A stretch of 64,000 nucleotides of DNA, taken from positions 4,359 through 68,358 of the forward strand of contig CAXXOZ010000007.1 in the NCBI GenBank assembly GCA_963676435.2, given 5' to 3'. This DNA comes from an uncultured Parasporobacterium sp. (GTDB lineage: Bacteria > Bacillota > Clostridia > Lachnospirales > Lachnospiraceae). The notes under the pieces are model-generated. The model saw nothing but the letters and a program-made list of their open reading frames with translations. It was not told the origin of the DNA and ran no database searches. Positions within the stretch are counted from its first letter, which is position 1, and every line of letters begins with the position of its first letter. Shown here piece by piece: positions 2,124-35,326 of this stretch. The translations under genes were made by a program, and so were the position numbers.

Positions 2124-2138
2124 TTAATATTCAATTTG

Positions 2139-2162
2139 AAAAGAGTCTTTTGACTCTTTTTT
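2139..2162 (+). terminator. Rho-independent terminator after the usp gene
   Basis: AAAAGAGTC-tttt-GACTCTTTT stem-loop followed by a T run. Confidence 0.7.
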
Positions 2163-2288
2163 ACATTTTAGGAATTTTCTTCGAAACTCCCTAAAATGTA
2201 AAACTCGCCGAGGGAGCGCAGAGTCGCAGATAAGGAAATAATTGCTTTGGGGAAGCGACTCGCGAAAGAGTTCGTTTACGAACTCTTT
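2159..2288 (+). repeat. Structured GC-rich intergenic repeat, copy A (possible ncRNA or REP/MITE-like element)
   Basis: Three parts: a 14-bp perfect AT stem (TTTTACATTTTAGG/CCTAAAATGTAAAA) with a 17-nt loop containing TTCGAA; a GC-rich core (cgcagagtcgcagataaggaaataattgct...); and a terminal hairpin AAAGAGTTCG-ttta-CGAACTCTTT. About 70% identical to copy B at 20103-20238. Confidence 0.6.
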
Positions 2289-2370
2289 ATTATATCATTT
2301 ACTTTTGTAGACAAAAGATTTAATTATTGATAAAATGAGAATGTTATTGTGAAAATAGGAGGAATAGTGA

Positions 2371-12713: not shown

Positions 12714-15700
12714 ATGAATGACCGTAAGACTTTACTTATTGCAGACGACAATAGGGTAAATCGTTTATTATTAGTTGATATTTTAAAAGAATACTATAAC
12801 ATCATAGAAGCCGAAGATGGTAAGGAGGCAATAGATGTTATTGAGGCAAATAAAGAAGATATAAGTGTAGTACTTCTTGATATTATAATGCCTAAAAAAG
12901 ATGGTTTTCAAGTTATTAGTGAAATAAGAAACCGATTAAATTTAAAGGAATTGCCAGTTATAGTAATAACTGTAAAAGATGATCCAAAAGTAGAAGTAAA
13001 GGCATTAGATTTAGGTGCAGATGATTTAGTGGTTAAACCTGTAGAGCCAAAGGTTATATTGCAACGTGTAAAAAACATGATTGAAAAGAAAGAAATGCAT
13101 CAAATCATGATAGAAAACACTAGACTCAAAGAACAGGCTGATGCACAAGCTGTTTTACAGTATAGATTGGACCATGATTCATTAACTGGAATTTATAGTA
13201 GAGATATTTTTTGTAAAGAAACCTCAAAAATGTTGGTGAAAAACCCAAAAAGTAATTATATTTTGGTATCTTTTGACATTGAAAAAATCAAACTTGTTAA
13301 TGACTTGTTTGGGAGAAAAATTGGAAATGAGATTTTAAAAGCTATAGCTGTAAGTTTAAAAATATTGCTTTCCGGAAACGGCACATACGCAAGACTAGAA
13401 TCAGATAGGTTTGCGGCTTGTTTTTCGGAAAGTTTTTTGACCCTTTTAGAATTTCAAAAAAAGATAAATGATGCAATAAAATTTATTATTCCAAATTTTA
13501 CTGTTATTTGTAAATTTGGAGCCTATAAAGTTGTAGATACTGAGGTAGATATAGATATTATGTGTGACAGAGCTCATATGGCACTACAAACCGTCAAGGG
13601 TGATTATAGCATTAATTATGTATACTATAATGATCAGATTCATGAAACACTAGTGTTGGAACAAAAAATCATTAGCGATATGGAGGAAGCCTTAGCAGGC
13701 AAACAGTTTGAAATTTATCTACAACCTATATATAGTTTATCAAAAATGAAACCAGTTTCAGCTGAAGCTCTTGTTAGATGGAATCATCCTGAGTTTGGTA
13801 TGATCTCACCAGGCATATTCATTCCGATTTTTGAAAAAAATGGATATATTGCTAAGCTTGATTATTTTGTGTGGGAACAAGCCTGTAGATTTTTAGCAAA
13901 TAGAGCTAAAAAAAATAAAGATGAAATATCAGTTTCTGTAAATGTGTCAAGATATACATTATATGATCCTGATCTTAGTAATAAAATAATTAAACTAGTA
14001 AAGAAATATGACATAAATCCTCTTCTTTTAAAATTTGAAATCACAGAAAGTGCATATACAGATAATCCAAAACAATTAATAAATACAATGGTATTATTGC
14101 AAAAATACGGCTTTAAATTATTGATGGATGATTTCGGGAGTGGATTTTCTTCATTAAATCTTTTAAAAAACCTGAATGTAGATATTTTAAAAATTGATAT
14201 GAAGTTTTTAGAAGACTTTGAAACATCTTCTAGAGGTGGAAGTATTTTCACCTCAGTGGTAAGAATGGCTAAATGGTTGAATATTCCTGTTATTGCAGAA
14301 GGCGTCGAGACAAAAGCTCAGCTGGAATTTTTAAGAGGTGTCGGCTGCGATAGCATTCAGGGTTATTATTTTTCTGAGCCATTGTCCATAAAAGAATTTG
14401 AAGAACATTTGTTGAAAAATATTGATCTTAATATTGATTCAGCGCCTAAGATAAGAGAAGAAATGGAATTTGATGAACTATTTAATGGCAATAAAATGTT
14501 GACTAGTTTGTTTAATAGTTTTGTTGGAGGTATAGGTATATACGAATTTTCACCAGCAGGGCTAGAGGTGATAAGAGTTAATGATAGATATTATGAAGTG
14601 ATGGGTTATAATCCTCAAACACTTTTTTCAGAGGGTAGAAATATTTTAAATCAACTTTATTCTGAAGAAGATAAAAACATTTTAATAGAAGGATGCAAAA
14701 AGGCCATAAAAGGTGAAAAGGTGGATGAAATAACTATAAGGCGTTATCATGCTGATGGTAATACACTGATGTGGCTAAACAGTAGTATAAGACATTTAGG
14801 TGGGGATGGTGAAATACAAATACTCTGCATTACATCAAGTGATATTACAGAAAATAAAAAAAATGAAATGCTTTTGGAAAAACAGAGTGAGGATTTAAAT
14901 CTTAACCGTTCTATAATTCAAGGGCTGTATAATAATGTTTTATGTGGGATTATTCAATATACATATGATGATTTGAAAATCTTAAATATTAATGATGAAG
15001 CTTGTAGAATACAGGGTTATCCCAATAAGGATGCTCTTTACAGAAGTATGCAAAAAAGCAAAGAAGAAAAAGAAGAAAATCCTCAATATATTGAATTGAA
15101 ATCATACCTAGAGAAATATAAAGAAACTGGAAAAAGAGTTAGTTTTGTACATGAATTTATTAAAGGTGATGGAAATGAAGGATGGGCAAAAGGAAATATT
15201 GATATAGGGATAGGTTTTGATGGGGAAAAAATTATACAATGCGTTTTTATAGATATTTCGGATCAAAAAATAAAGGAAAGAGAATCAATAGAAAGCATTA
15301 GAATTATTGAAGATATCTATAATAATGTTCCTTGTGCTATTATGCAGTTTACAATTGAAAAAAAACCAAAACTAATAAATTGTAATGAAGCAACTGTTGA
15401 ACTATATGGTTACGAAAGTTTTAATGAATTAAAAATAGCATTAAATGAAAACGTCTTTAAACATCTTCATCATGATGAGTTTGATATGGCAAATGAAAAT
15501 ATAAAGACTGTTCTGTCAAGTCAGGTAAAAAGGGATTTCCTATATAAGCTTACTAGAAAGGATGGAAGCATTTTCTGGGCTCAAGGTACAATTCATAAGA
15601 CAAAGAGTATGTCAGGACAAGAAGTTTTAGAAATTGTGTTTATTGATGTCACTGATACTGTACAAAAAAACAGGCAAAAAACAAAAATTAATGAGCTTTA

Positions 15701-20039: not shown

Positions 20040-20108
20040 ATAGGGTTGAGAGTTTTTATTCCACAGTTTAAAACTGATGGAATTGATATTCTCAGCCTAT
20101 TTTTTTTT
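20040..20108 (+). terminator. Rho-independent terminator after rpmE
   Basis: Long imperfect hairpin ATAGGGTTGAGA...TCTCAGCCTAT with inner ATTCCA/TGGAAT stem, followed by T8. Confidence 0.7.
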
Positions 20109-20238
20109 AATTTATAGGAAAGTTCCTTGAACTCACCTATAAATTAAAAAACTCTACGCGAGAACGCAGAGTCGTATATAAGGTAATAATTGCTAGCAAG
20201 GAGCACCTCACGAGAGATTCGCGTTGGAACTCTTTGTT
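20103..20238 (+). repeat. Structured GC-rich intergenic repeat, copy B
   Basis: 16-bp perfect stem TTTTTTAATTTATAGG/CCTATAAATTAAAAAA with a 17-nt loop similar to the copy A loop. Core is cgcagagtcgtatataaggtaataattgct. Terminal hairpin is AGAG(A)TTC-gcgttg-GAACTCT followed by TTGTT. Confidence 0.6.
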
Positions 20239-28579: not shown

Positions 28580-28623
28580 ATGAACTCTTATGTCAATAAC
28601 ATGACATTCAGAGTTCATTTTTT
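28580..28623 (+). terminator. Rho-independent terminator after the HD-GYP gene
   Basis: ATGAACTCTtATGTCA-ataaca-TGACATtcAGAGTTCAT followed by T6. Confidence 0.75.
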
Positions 28624-28636
28624 ACATTATAGGGAG

Positions 28637-30332
28637 TTTCGAAAAGCTAGGGTAAAATTTTTGTAGGATATTAATTAAAATAAATAATAGAGAACACCTT
28701 CTTTGTGTTAAGATTTAAATGCGAATAAAAATCAAATGCAAAGGATGGGTGTTCTCTATGATTAAAAGTATACAACAGTTTGAAGAAGTTGGGGTAAAAA
28801 ATTTAGGTAAAGTGTTAGAAGATTTTATAAATAAACCTGAAAAGCAGGCGGAGTTTATTTATGGTGTTACAGATTCAGTTGTAAGGTTAGGTTTAGATAT
28901 TATTAAAGAAACTTTAGAGAGCATGGATGAAGAACTACGTAAAAGTGGTCTGCGAAAGTCAGGATGGGTAATTAGCAGAAAAGATGAAACATCATTAATT
29001 ACAAGCCTTGGAACAGTTAAGTATCATAAAACACTGTTTAAAAATAAAGAATCTGGAATCTGCGAGTATCTGCTAGATAAAGTCATGGGACTGGAAAGTC
29101 ATACGAGAATGACAGAGGATGCAGAGGCGCAAATGCTTGAAGAAGCTGTAGATAGCAGTTACCGAAAAGGTGGAATAAATGTTAGTCTTTCAGATACAGT
29201 GAGTAAACAAACAGTTAAGAATAAGATTCATAGTCTGAAGTTTTATCAGGAAAATAATGAAGCCGTGCATAAGAAGCAAGTGGATTATCTATATATAGAT
29301 GCGGATGAAGACCATGTTTCCTTACAATATTTGGAAAGTAAGGGAGACATTGAAAAACCAAGATCAAATACAAGTATGCCAAAACTAGCCTACGTATATG
29401 AAGGAATTGAACCTGATGCACCTAAAAGTCAAAGGATGAAGTTGATAAATCCTAAATATTTTGGTGGGATTTATGAAGGAAGTAAAGGAGTGGAACAGTT
29501 TTGGCGAGAAATATACGATTATATACAGTCGACTTATGATATAAGTAAAATCAAGCATATATATATTAATGGGGATGGTGCTAATTGGATTAAGACAGGA
29601 AGGAAGTGGATTTCAGGATCTATTTTTGTATTGGACAAATTTCATATGCAAAAATACATTATAAAAGCAACTTCACATCTTATGGATTCAGCTTTAGATG
29701 CTAGAAGTGAAATATATCGAGCAATCAATAAAAGAGTTAAATGGATGGCACAGGCAACATTTGAAAAAATTTTAAATGTAACAGAAACAGAAAGTCAGAG
29801 AAAAAAAGTTGAAACCTGTATGTTATATATTCTCGGTAATTGGAATGGTATAATAAGAGGTGGAATTAACAAAGATTCACAGGTGGGTTGTAGTGCAGAA
29901 GGTCATGTAAGTCATATTTATTCGGACAGAATGAGTTCTAGACCATTAGGGTGGAGCAGACACGGTGTTAATCAAATGTCGAAACTACGAATATATAAAG
30001 CAAACAAAGGAAATATGTTAGAGCTTGTAAGAATGCAAAAACAGGAATTACAATTGGCTGCAGGTGCAGAAGAAGAGATAATATGTATGAGTAGCGAAAT
30101 GTTTAAAGCCGAAAGAACAAGATTAAAAGAAGAACAAAGATATTTAGAAAGAATGACCCACAGTATTCCTTTTCCAGAAGTTAAAAAAATAGCATATTTC
30201 AAACATCAAATTTGGGGATTGTAAAAATAGAGAAAAATAGTTATAGTGTGAACAGAAGCTAAGTCTGAAACACATCAAGGGGAATCTCTGTCCAATTAAA
30301 TCCTACAGTTAATTTACGCTATCTTTCGAAAA
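28637..30332 (+). mobile_element. ISLre2-family-like insertion sequence, coordinates include the 9-bp target duplications
   Basis: Direct repeat TTTCGAAAA at 28637-28645 and 30324-30332. It flanks imperfect 24-bp terminal inverted repeats (GCTAGGGTAAAATTTTTGTAGGAT vs reverse complement GATAGCGTAAATTAACTGTAGGAT, about 18/24). A single transposase ORF lies inside. Confidence 0.7.
28758..30224 (+). CDS. Transposase (UPF0236/ISLre2 family, by recollection)
   Basis: About 488 aa starting MIKSIQQFEE. Internal YIDADEDHV and INGDGANWI acidic motifs fit a DDE-type enzyme. Flanked by IRs and target duplications. Alternative upstream ATG at 28719. Confidence 0.65.
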   Translation: MIKSIQQFEEVGVKNLGKVLEDFINKPEKQAEFIYGVTDSVVRLGLDIIKETLESMDEELRKSGLRKSGWVISRKDETSLITSLGTVKYHKTLFKNKESGICEYLLDKVMGLESHTRMTEDAEAQMLEEAVDSSYRKGGINVSLSDTVSKQTVKNKIHSLKFYQENNEAVHKKQVDYLYIDADEDHVSLQYLESKGDIEKPRSNTSMPKLAYVYEGIEPDAPKSQRMKLINPKYFGGIYEGSKGVEQFWREIYDYIQSTYDISKIKHIYINGDGANWIKTGRKWISGSIFVLDKFHMQKYIIKATSHLMDSALDARSEIYRAINKRVKWMAQATFEKILNVTETESQRKKVETCMLYILGNWNGIIRGGINKDSQVGCSAEGHVSHIYSDRMSSRPLGWSRHGVNQMSKLRIYKANKGNMLELVRMQKQELQLAAGAEEEIICMSSEMFKAERTRLKEEQRYLERMTHSIPFPEVKKIAYFKHQIWGL

Positions 30333-32987: not shown

Positions 32988-33019
32988 AGAGGCATTACTG
33001 GTAGAACAGTAATGCCTCT
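32988..33019. terminator. Bidirectional terminator between clpB and the ABC-2 operon
   Basis: AGAGGCATTACTG-gtagaa-CAGTAATGCCTCT, a 13-bp perfect stem. Confidence 0.8.
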
Positions 33020-33030
33020 TTATATTGAAC

Positions 33031-34197
33031 CTATGCTTCTTTTCTGTTATTTGCTTTTGCAATGGCAATCGAAATTGCAAATAGTGCTAATGTGTAAACT
33101 GCTACAATTCCTATATAACTAAAAATCTTTAATAAGACTTCATTTGTAATAGCAGTTTGAGAGATTGTTTCATTTACCAGTACGAACCAGTATGTAGGTA
33201 AAAATCTTGAAACCTTTAAAAGCCCATCCCCCAAAAGAAACTGGGGTACTAATCCACCGCTCATAAATGCTAAACCAAGAGATAGAATATTTGAAAGGGC
33301 TATACTTGCTTCTTTTGGCAAAGTGAACTGAGAAATTAGGAAGGATATACTTGTGGCACACAATGCAAACACATATGCATTTATCCAAAATAGTATTATG
33401 CTTAAATTTATGATAAAACTTCCATTAATTATGAAACCTATAATAATTAAAATTGTTGTGGCAATCAATGCAAATATAATGTTTCCAAGAAAAAGCTGTA
33501 GTTGCATGGATTTTAAACTAATTGGAGAAGAAATATTTCTTCTTTTCATATCTAGATTTTGATATGAACTCATAATAATACATATTATGGATGTGAAAAC
33601 AGCTAAAAGTATATATACAAAAAAGTTGTGATATGTTGTCATAAATGAATAAGTACCTGTTTCTTCCATGTCAGTACTTAAGCTTACATTAATGTCGGTT
33701 AATAGGCTATTATTTACAAGCTCAAGAATTTTTGTAGTATCATATTCAGGATACAAACTAAAAAATGTTCTGGCAGTGGAAAGGTAATTATTTATTATTA
33801 TATTTCCAAAATCTGCATAGTTTGAGTCAGGAAAGGTCATTTCTTCTATTGAAACATCATCACCTTTAATAAAAGCATCTGTAAAACCTTCAGGAATAAT
33901 AATTACATGTGTAATCTCATGGAAAAATAGAGAATCTTTTAAATCATCAATATTATTTTCCATTTCAACAAAAGTGTATCTTTCGTCTAAATATTCAAAT
34001 AATCCCTGAACAAGTTCGGTATCTTTGTCATTGTTTATAAAAGTAAAATACAAATCTACATCTTCAAAGTTTTTTTCTGTATCACCTTTTCTTGCAAGCC
34101 CAAAAAAGATTATCATTAGTATAAATATTACAAGGTAAATCATCAAACTTAATTTATGGCTTTTTAAAATTTTGAAATAATTTTTAAATACTTGCAT
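33031..34197 (-). CDS. ABC-2 type transporter permease
   Basis: 388 aa with an N-terminal TM helix, a large extracytoplasmic loop and 5 C-terminal TM helices. Overlaps the upstream permease gene. Confidence 0.75.
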   Translation of the reverse strand: MQVFKNYFKILKSHKLSLMIYLVIFILMIIFFGLARKGDTEKNFEDVDLYFTFINNDKDTELVQGLFEYLDERYTFVEMENNIDDLKDSLFFHEITHVIIIPEGFTDAFIKGDDVSIEEMTFPDSNYADFGNIIINNYLSTARTFFSLYPEYDTTKILELVNNSLLTDINVSLSTDMEETGTYSFMTTYHNFFVYILLAVFTSIICIIMSSYQNLDMKRRNISSPISLKSMQLQLFLGNIIFALIATTILIIIGFIINGSFIINLSIILFWINAYVFALCATSISFLISQFTLPKEASIALSNILSLGLAFMSGGLVPQFLLGDGLLKVSRFLPTYWFVLVNETISQTAITNEVLLKIFSYIGIVAVYTLALFAISIAIAKANNRKEA

Positions 34198-35326
34198 ATT
34201 TTGACCTCCTTGTAAGCAGTATAGTTATAATACCTAAAATAAAGCTAAATAAACTAAGAATAGTGATATTTAAAATATATCTATTTAAATCTTCGTAATA
34301 GTATAAACTATATAAGGCGTCCACAATTAAATTTGCAGGGTTAATATATTTTAAAACAGGTACTGTATTAGCAACAATTATTTTCATATTTGGAACCATT
34401 AAACCAGCAAGAAAGCATCCTGATAAAGAAACAGCTGTAACTATTGAAGATTTTACATCCAGATCTTTTTTTGAAACAGCACCGATAAACCCTCCTAAAA
34501 AAAGACCAAAAAGACAACTTAATAAACATGTTACAATAACCAGTAACATTCTATCTCCAAAGTTTACCCCAAGTATAAATTTTAAAAATGCTAGGAATAT
34601 AAAACAAATTATAACCTGCATTACATATGCAGCACTTAATGAAGCGATTACAAATTTATATTTAGGTACAGGTGAAAGATTTACTCTGGCAGCAGTAAAT
34701 GAGAGATTCGCCTGTATAGAGGTTATTTCCTTTAAACCATAACTTGCAGCAAATAGGCAGGCCATAGCAATCAAAGAATAGTAATAATTTAAAATCATAT
34801 CAGGAGGGTTAGAAACTTGATCGCTATAAGTTACAAAACTACCATTTGAATCAATAATATCAAAATCTATAGAGGTAATATCGTTACCACTTTCACTTAT
34901 AATATTTGTAATAATATTTGATATTCTAGAGTAGGATTCAAGTACGGATTTTATTACAGATTGGTTAATGCCTGATTCCCTTACAATAAGGTCTAAAGAC
35001 TCACCAAAAACTATATAACCTGATATTTCTCCTTGTTTCAGCATATCTTCGGAAGAATCCACATCACTAATGTTAACTTTAAACATTTTTTTTCCTTCAG
35101 AAATTTCTATTTCTTCTAGCGTTTGTGTGAAAGTTTCAAATTCTTCTATAGCTTGACCTTCATTTACTACAGATATTGAAATAGTTTCTAAGGGATCTGC
35201 CGAATAGGCATCAGTCAATGCTAAACCAAAAAACAGAGAAAGAAGAATAGGGAACAATAAGGCCCAAAAAATCATTATCTTTTGATTTAGAAGTATTTTA
35301 ATTCTTGTAAAAAAAATATTTAACAT
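34184..35326 (-). CDS. ABC-2 type transporter permease
   Basis: 380 aa with the same topology as its neighbour. Confidence 0.75.
   Translation of the reverse strand: MLNIFFTRIKILLNQKIMIFWALLFPILLSLFFGLALTDAYSADPLETISISVVNEGQAIEEFETFTQTLEEIEISEGKKMFKVNISDVDSSEDMLKQGEISGYIVFGESLDLIVRESGINQSVIKSVLESYSRISNIITNIISESGNDITSIDFDIIDSNGSFVTYSDQVSNPPDMILNYYYSLIAMACLFAASYGLKEITSIQANLSFTAARVNLSPVPKYKFVIASLSAAYVMQVIICFIFLAFLKFILGVNFGDRMLLVIVTCLLSCLFGLFLGGFIGAVSKKDLDVKSSIVTAVSLSGCFLAGLMVPNMKIIVANTVPVLKYINPANLIVDALYSLYYYEDLNRYILNITILSLFSFILGIITILLTRRSKYASI

Follow-up and report, generated by a model that had tools for sequence, protein, structure and literature searches.

The window analysed here is a stretch of 64,000 nucleotides (nt) from the genome of an uncultured Parasporobacterium sp. 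of the family Lachnospiraceae (GenBank assembly GCA_963676435.2, contig CAXXOZ010000007.1, positions 4,359 to 68,358). Two copies of a structured repeat of about 135 nt, which contains no open reading frame (ORF), were found in the window, one (copy A) upstream of a gene for a beta-CASP RNase and the other (copy B) upstream of the DUF1385–prmC–prfA operon. Copy A is preceded by a universal stress protein gene (usp), whose intrinsic terminator was located by a terminator scan at 2138..2162 on the + strand and consists of the hairpin GAAAAGAGTC-tttt-GACTCTTTT and a T-run at 2157-2162. This terminator is the target site of the repeat and lies outside it, since the hairpins upstream of other copies are unrelated in sequence; the T-run was assigned to the target because it varies between the sites of near-identical copies in another genome, G199. 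Copy A proper occupies 2163..2291 (+), scored 151.6 bits with covariance model R1 and can be aligned with the 12 other full copies of the genome. The model match spans 2157-2291 when the T-run is counted, and sequence comparison suggests 2163 as the first position of the element proper.

An earlier interpretation of this DNA made from the letters alone, called the sequence-only reading below, had described a GC-rich structured element of about 130 nt with three parts, and all of these features were found in place. The first part is a perfect 14-bp AT-rich stem (2159-2172, TTTTACATTTTAGG, paired with 2190-2203, CCTAAAATGTAAAA) with a loop of 17 nt, aattttcttcgaaactc, that has TTCGAA inside. It forms helix P1 (2159..2203, +), a long AT-rich hairpin whose outer stem pairs the T-run of the terminator with an A-run of the element and which holds the motif TAGGAA...(T)CCTA found throughout the family. 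The second part is a GC-rich core at 2204-2264, with 57% GC compared with 31% for the window, in which GAGTCGC (2221-2227) is paired with GCGACTC (2256-2262). This core comprises P2 (2204..2216, +), a small hairpin CUCGCCGAGGGAG identified by covariation and folding, and P3 (2217..2264, +), a long-range GC helix of GCGCAGAGUCGC and GCGACUCGCG with one bulged A, which surrounds the purine-rich stretch AUAAGGAAAUAAU and a small inner hairpin. The third part is a hairpin of 10 bp at 2266-2289, AAAGAGTTCG-ttta-CGAACTCTTT, with T-rich DNA next to it. As RNA this terminator-like helix, P4 (2266..2291, +), reads AAAGAGUUCG-uuua-CGAACUCUUU followed by the tail AUU, and its folding energy is -12.4 kcal/mol. 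RNA folding of 2125-2295 gave a z-score of -5.1 relative to shuffled sequences.

Copy B lies at 20109..20238 (+; covariance-model match 20103-20238, 118 bits). Its target is the rpmE terminator at 20041..20108 (+), TAGGgtTGAGA...TCTCAgcCTA followed by a run of nine Ts, which shares homology with rpmE terminators from other genera. Copy B is 71% identical to copy A and has its parts in the same order, as the sequence-only reading had reported for 20103-20238 with an estimate of about 70%. That reading had spoken of at least two copies, which was correct but far too low. The genome (G000; 2.62 Mb, 32% GC) was searched with BLAST, iterated nhmmer and model R1, which was built from its 13 full copies; besides these 13 copies of about 135 nt, four deletion derivatives were found in the genome, and a half copy lies in the window. 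The copies are 71–92% identical and are spread over nine contigs and both strands. The derivatives arose by internal deletion and kept P1, with or without the 3' terminus.

The sequence-only reading had also placed the start of both copies within the T-tail of the preceding gene's terminator. This held for both, with the left edge of copy A corrected to 2163, and proved to be the defining property of the whole family. Every copy in the genome was preceded by a different GC-containing hairpin and a T-run, and the repeat began directly after this T-run in sense orientation. Among the 14 longest copies, the upstream ORF was co-oriented with the repeat in all 14 cases and the downstream ORF in 13, the one remaining copy facing a convergent gene. 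The genes beside the 17 copies are unrelated (nusB, the beta-CASP RNase gene, PadR genes, thrS, plsX, the DUF1385 gene, rimM, thrC, flgB and others), and there is no regulon behind their placement. Folding of the 42 nt in front of the repeat gave a mean energy of -16.1 kcal/mol for 57 copies drawn from over 30 genomes; 91% of these stretches reached -8 kcal/mol or lower, compared with 19% for randomly chosen positions and 13% for positions that precede any run of five Ts. The G-rich (leading) strand carries 14 of the 17 copies and the lagging strand three, yet these three are co-oriented with their genes, a distribution close to that expected from gene strand bias alone.

Copies also occur behind the terminators of T-box leaders. 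The copy at thrS (C22:24481-24617, - strand) sits after the T-box terminator and before the ribosome-binding site; the leader, in the roughly 250 nt upstream of the copy, contains the T-box motif AATGGGTGGAACCGCG, then the terminator and a run of six Ts. The thrS mRNA must therefore be read through the repeat. In Diplocloster hominis, a copy was found behind the serS T-box terminator. These locations indicate that the target is the terminator structure itself and not the end of a gene.

The boundaries of the element were defined in G199, the genome with the closest copies, in which one subfamily is near-identical at no fewer than eight loci behind eight different hairpins. These copies are uniform from (T)ATATCATAGG through CACTTTGTT. 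The T-runs to their left were TTATTT, ATTTTT, TTTTTT, TTTTCT, TTTATT or, where another copy comes before, the TTTGTTC tail of that copy, and such variation beside a constant element shows that the T-run belongs to the target. No target-site duplication was present in G199, as the left flank is not repeated at the right, where TTTGTT is followed by unrelated DNA. Terminal inverted repeats were also absent: the 5' end reads (T)ATATCATAGG... and the 3' end ...CGACACTTTGTT, and P1 is an internal palindrome only. The 5' end of the element follows the pattern AYNNNATAGG. Two further observations were made among the near-identical copies of G199 (L338, L335). In one copy both arms of P1 had changed jointly from A-T to G-C, and in another the apical loop was flipped from TTT to AAA; these changes hint at a DNA-level process, either templating from one arm to the other or an inversion inside the palindrome.

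Besides the copies of G199, those of G003 give evidence of recent activity, as at least 41 copies with 78–99% identity were found there. Tandem arrays occur in G003, G017 and G020, in which one T-run is common to adjacent units and a solo P1 is often the last unit. The shared T-run fits P4 and its T-run acting as a further landing site. Genome G003 also contains two copies that consist of P3 and P4 only and have a derived P4 in common, one of them directly behind a terminator.

The corresponding sites in relatives are empty. The element was absent from the rpmE–DUF1385 junction in 24 other genomes, and copy B occurs at this junction in the present genome only. The rpmE terminator is conserved across genera (AGGTTGAG...CTCAACC followed by Ts) and the DUF1385 leader comes directly next in the 24 genomes; in relatives L183, L184 and L190, for example, AGGTTGAG..CTCAACCT and the T-run are immediately followed by this leader. 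Likewise, the element was absent from all 80 related thrS loci found in metagenomes, the best of which are at most 80% identical. In these relatives the T-box terminator ends in a run of five to seven Ts directly before the ribosome-binding site, while here the equivalent run of six Ts is followed by the element. The empty sites show that the copies were inserted and are not ancestral leaders, and a conserved leader of DUF1385–prmC–prfA or of thrS was rejected on these 24 and 80 loci. Insertions are thus lineage-specific, and in some genomes they are recent.

The sequence-only reading had proposed counting homologues in the genome and its relatives, which gave 17 copies here and positive results for 69 of 201 sampled Lachnospiraceae genera (11 of 25 in a first panel), all with the four-helix architecture. 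None of 16 other families sampled from the order contained the element. The positive genera include Roseburia, Blautia, Butyrivibrio, Anaerostipes, Lactonifactor, Diplocloster and Cuneatibacter. Single genomes contain between 1 and more than 40 copies, and there are hundreds of copies across the Lachnospiraceae.

The architecture of the family is, from the 5' side, the T-run, P1 (a variable outer stem, the conserved ATAGGAAA...CCTAT and a variable apex) and the A-run, followed by P2, GGAUGCGCAC, P3 around AAGGAA and a small hairpin, P4 and T-rich DNA. CUCCG is the P2 loop in this scheme and the conserved core of that loop in other genera. A consensus fold of 47 cross-genus copies aligned with MAFFT gave P1 and part of P4 only, and a model-fitted alignment of 60 copies was used instead for the covariation analysis that the sequence-only reading had suggested. 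Compensatory changes were found at 34 of 39 pairs. Paired cells amounted to 94.7%, compared with 75% after shuffling and 43–59% when the partners were slid, percentages that are somewhat inflated by the fitting of the alignment to the model. In P1, 10 of 14 pairs were compensated and 97% of cells were paired; in P3, all nine modelled pairs were compensated. All nine pairs of the P4 stem covary freely, and its sequence is neither conserved nor related to P1. G-U pairs outnumbered A-C mismatches by 27 to 2 in P4 and by 16 to 5 in P2, and the counts were 13 to 14 in P1 and 16 to 18 in P3. The excess of G-U in P4 makes this helix resemble a working RNA terminator on the sense strand, and for P1 and P3 the constraint could act on DNA or on RNA that pairs strictly by Watson-Crick rules. 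As the sequence-only reading had said, the element matches no known RNA family: no match to Rfam 15 was obtained for the 64-kb window at the gathering score or for both copies at E up to 10. The best score near the copies was at chance level (E 0.045, 20 bits compared with a gathering score of 114).

The co-oriented position of the copies behind terminators argues for a small mobile element rather than for a regulator of the neighbouring gene. The repeat is probably a non-autonomous mobile element that homes to terminators and is moved by a mobiliser acting in trans, and the family is apparently undescribed so far; no account of such an element was found in full-text literature searches. The sequence-only reading had left three options, namely a small RNA (sRNA), a leader or attenuator, and a repeat resembling REP sequences or MITEs (miniature transposable elements with inverted repeats). 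The repeat option is borne out by the 17 copies here, the empty orthologous sites, the near-identical copies elsewhere, and the tandem and truncated copies. The leader or attenuator option is not supported in view of the RNase gene's own promoter, the unrelated flanking genes and the empty rpmE–DUF1385 junction in 24 genomes, and an sRNA is unlikely given that no promoter is conserved.

In the proposed mechanism, a trans-acting machinery would insert the element by reading the structure of the hairpin and T-run, not the sequence, on a single-stranded nucleic acid. The conserved helices P1–P3 would be the parts recognised by this machinery, which would explain why covariation extends over the whole length and not just the ends. 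The A-run of the element can pair with the T-run of the target and may help in docking. The element's own P4 hairpin and T-rich tail would then be a target for the next copies, and P4 as a new target would explain tandem arrays with a single shared T-run. A route through RNA and a reverse transcriptase (RT), a route through single-stranded DNA and some other route are roughly equally likely. A more specific proposal, which we regard as doubtful, is that the repeat represents a new class of RNA-structured non-autonomous elements that recognise terminators by shape, with the P1–P3 fold as the handle. The machinery would then most plausibly be the ribonucleoprotein or RT of co-resident group IIC introns, or else another enzyme, and the 3' terminator would delimit the unit that is transferred and at the same time create the next landing site. 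If this proposal is true, the repeat would be a bacterial parasite of terminator-homing retroelements comparable to short interspersed elements (SINEs), or the first small element with terminator homing of its own.

Several results weigh against a mobile element of this kind. The mobilising enzyme was not found among the candidates considered, which were Y1 (HUH) transposases, group II introns and RVT_1 reverse transcriptases. Genomes G004, G009, G012 and G019 contain the element and no Y1 gene, and many genomes rich in Y1 genes are without the element; no group II domain V/VI was detected in G007, G009, G011 and G019, and no RVT_1 in G004, G009 and G012. No pair of filled and empty alleles was found within one species, the genera of G000 and G003 being represented by one genome each; in the search for such a pair, the flanking universal stress protein was not on record, and synteny with G199 was too broken for a clean comparison. 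Conservation over the whole element is unusual for a DNA transposon and could reflect a host function, and the percentage of paired cells is inflated by the model-fitted alignment mentioned above.

As for the individual candidates, a Y1 transposase as the mobiliser was rejected because no phyletic link was seen for Pfam PF01797 in 41 genomes. Two of the genomes without Y1 are G009, which is 99% complete and has 8 copies, and G019, which has 31 copies. The sole Y1-transposase-like ORF of the present genome lies on contig C5 at about 13300-15100 and has no P1-like flanks. Contig C5 has roughly 50% GC in this genome of 32% GC, and may represent contamination or DNA acquired recently. A group II intron and an RVT_1 reverse transcriptase were each rejected as an obligatory partner, since the association was weak in both cases; some RT is present in all five high-copy panel genomes. 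Two class-C-like group II introns are present in the genome, at C13:~33000-34905 (-) and C6:~13450-15110 (-), one with an intact RT of 459 aa and one with a broken ORF. Each of them lies directly after a terminator hairpin and T-rich run, in one case the terminator of a tRNA gene, and in G017 one group IIC-type intron was likewise found behind a terminator. The P4 stem (AAAGAGTTCG/CGAACTCTTT) matches, with an identity of 10–12 nt, the stem that closes domain I in the resident intron (nt 16-25 and 248-259). This homology was set aside as probably due to chance, as the match was not reproduced in G003, G005, G017 and G020. At L323 (G003:C37:1-2000), the RT ORF of a second group II intron comes within about 300 nt after domain V/VI of a first one, so that two introns are nested or in tandem on this small contig.

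Among the other explanations, a module that serves the host in cis at the boundaries of transcription units is the likeliest, and we consider it improbable. Transcription of the repeat would come only from read-through of the upstream terminator, and its role would be that of a back-up terminator, an insulator or a 3'-end structure that protects or marks the read-through RNA, and its spread would be owed to its usefulness. The invariable sense orientation directly behind terminators and the conservation over the whole length agree with this explanation, as does P4, a freely covarying GC hairpin with a T-run, whose G-U bias of 27 to 2 is that expected of an RNA terminator. The strength of P4 also varies in a suggestive way. 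Two copies that have to be transcribed by read-through, copy B and the thrS copy, have a weakened P4 (-6.7 and -8.8 kcal/mol, respectively, compared with -12 to -19 kcal/mol for most copies), degenerate in copy B and with a degenerate tail in the thrS copy; in D. hominis, P4 of the serS copy has lost its 3' arm. This pattern is a trend and not a rule, however, as two copies just 30 nt upstream of genes have an intact P4. In addition, the U-tail of P4 is poor in this genome (UUUAUU or UUUGUU, partly within the stem), about two thirds of the genera of the family do without the element, the number of copies varies between 1 and over 40, and the element is not conserved at orthologous sites. Arrays in tandem and copies that are truncated have the appearance of by-products of proliferation.

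Slightly less probable still is a derivative of an HUH/Y1 single-strand transposon, either a palindrome-associated element of the IS200/IS605 type or a REP/REPIN moved by a RAYT, with single-stranded DNA as the substrate and insertion on the 3' side of a T-rich target. Hairpins near both ends, the lack of target-site duplications and terminal inverted repeats, and the strictly oriented insertion 3' of a short T-rich word would all be expected from such an element. The conserved P1 stem motif ATAGGAAA/CCTAT behaves as a protein-binding hairpin would, and the symmetric G-U and A-C counts of P1 and P3 fit a constraint at the DNA level. The joint change of the P1 arms in one near-identical copy of G199 and the flipped loop in another also speak for this reading. 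Y1_Tnp genes, however, do not track the element, as they are entirely lacking in G009 and G019, and the only Y1 gene of this genome lies without P1-like flanks on a compositionally foreign, GC-rich contig. The hairpins at the two ends are unrelated and the sequence of P4 is not conserved. Moreover, three of the 17 copies follow the orientation of their genes and not the replication strand.

The local effects of the repeat were also considered. The promoter-like site of the beta-CASP RNase gene lies at 2308..2336 (+), beyond the 3' side of the repeat. It reads TAGACA-17-TAAAAT, matches the consensus at 10 of 12 positions and has an extended -10 element, with TG preceding the -10 hexamer. Since this promoter is downstream of copy A, copy A lies outside the leader of the RNase gene. 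The effect of copy A on the host is probably near neutral, its contribution being no more than a weak back-up terminator. No conserved sigma-70-like promoter was found in the element by a scan of the sense strand. A candidate promoter in P1 (TAGGAA-N17-TAAAAT) was rejected, as it is weak and the spacing of its hexamers shifts with the length of the P1 loop across the family. Multicopy trans-acting sRNAs or cis-regulatory leaders of the riboswitch or attenuator type, which the conserved and covarying four-helix structure, the terminator-like 3' hairpin and the co-oriented gene downstream of most copies might suggest, are very unlikely in view of the missing Rfam match even at E up to 10, the lack of a conserved promoter with constant hexamer spacing, the unrelated neighbouring genes, the separate promoter of the gene after copy A, the same leaders in relatives without the element, and the one copy that faces a convergent gene.

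A third, partial copy in the window has been interrupted by an insertion sequence (IS). The region 28580..28645 (+) consists of a terminator hairpin (atgaactct...agagttcat), a T-run and then the 5' arm and loop of P1, ACATTATAGGGAGTTTCGAAAA. The half copy proper is located at 28624-28645, and the corresponding BLAST/nhmmer match is C7:32978-33001. The IS occupies 28646..30323 (+) within the P1 loop, and TTTCGAAAA is present on both of its sides, the repeated one at 30324-30332. The same IS end, GCTAGGGTAAAA..TTTTGTAGGATATTAATT, also adjoins the repeat copy C18:414894-415031, at C18:415032, and a transposase-like ORF of 501 aa lies downstream of that copy. The copy C9:161419-161553 (-) has a second P4-like hairpin, aaagttcgtaaacgtactctttgtt, directly 3' of it (C9:161385-161419), and this duplicated 3' module adjoins a convergent holA-like gene. 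A search of the genome with nhmmer and the covariance model for a long element bounded by P1 and P4 recovered short copies only.

A terminator-homing mobile element of this type would have consequences for both annotation and application. If small non-coding elements home to terminators, they would constitute a second system that reads terminator structure, besides group IIC introns. The mobilising enzyme, if found, could yield a tool for structure-directed and orientation-specific insertion. The repeat is common in gut Lachnospiraceae, with about one third of the sampled genera carrying it, and it occurs in 3' untranslated regions, operons and T-box leaders, where it adds or removes terminator hairpins beside genes and could easily pass for a riboswitch or an sRNA. 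In draft assemblies it is also found where contigs end. For the beta-CASP RNase gene and the DUF1385–prmC–prfA operon, no dedicated regulatory leader should be annotated.

Several known systems share features with the element. Structured interspersed repeats and MITEs of prokaryotes include bcr1 of the Bacillus cereus group, Correia, ERIC and RUP elements. The present repeat resembles these in size, in being non-coding and foldable as RNA, in its intergenic dispersal and patchy presence, and in its internal-deletion derivatives. It differs from them by the absence of terminal inverted repeats and target-site duplications, by its strict orientation and terminator specificity, and by conservation and covariation that extend beyond the ends over the full length. 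Elements derived from IS200/IS605 and the REP/REPIN–RAYT system also have hairpins, lack target-site duplications and terminal inverted repeats, insert in one orientation beside a short target word and often lie at the 3' ends of genes. In contrast to them, the present element shows no co-occurrence with Y1, its end hairpins are dissimilar (a conserved motif in P1, free sequence in P4), and its orientation does not appear to be tied to the replication strand.

The nearest named repeat is SPRITE of S. pneumoniae and S. mitis, which has a single 18-bp stem and a U-tract and is enriched between convergent genes (PMC3049150). Both are dispersed, non-coding, AT-containing repeats of about 100–135 nt that lie near gene ends in Firmicutes, with a terminator-like stem and U-rich tail and no identified transposase or target-site duplication. 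By the description in PMC3049150, the present element is set apart by its four covarying helices, by its occurrence across a whole family compared with two sister species, and by the location of 13 of 14 copies between co-directional genes. Neither a location behind pre-existing terminators nor a multi-helix core was reported for SPRITE.

Among known systems, group IIC introns alone have the same target. According to PMC1702495, these introns lie downstream of terminator motifs composed of an inverted repeat and then Ts. Like the present element, they insert in sense orientation directly behind intrinsic terminators, without target duplication, and recognise the target by structure and a few U/T residues; the pairing of the element's A-run with the target T-run is comparable to their EBS1-IBS1 pairing between exon- and intron-binding sites. 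Unlike these introns, the element is only about 135 nt long, has no ORF and no GUGYG 5' end, lacks the ribozyme core and domain V/VI (no RF00029 match at E up to 10), and is also present in genomes without a detected group II intron. Self-splicing of the element is not plausible. By analogy of target and orientation, the group IIC intron would nevertheless be the closest functional analogue of this repeat, and retrohoming its nearest functional model.

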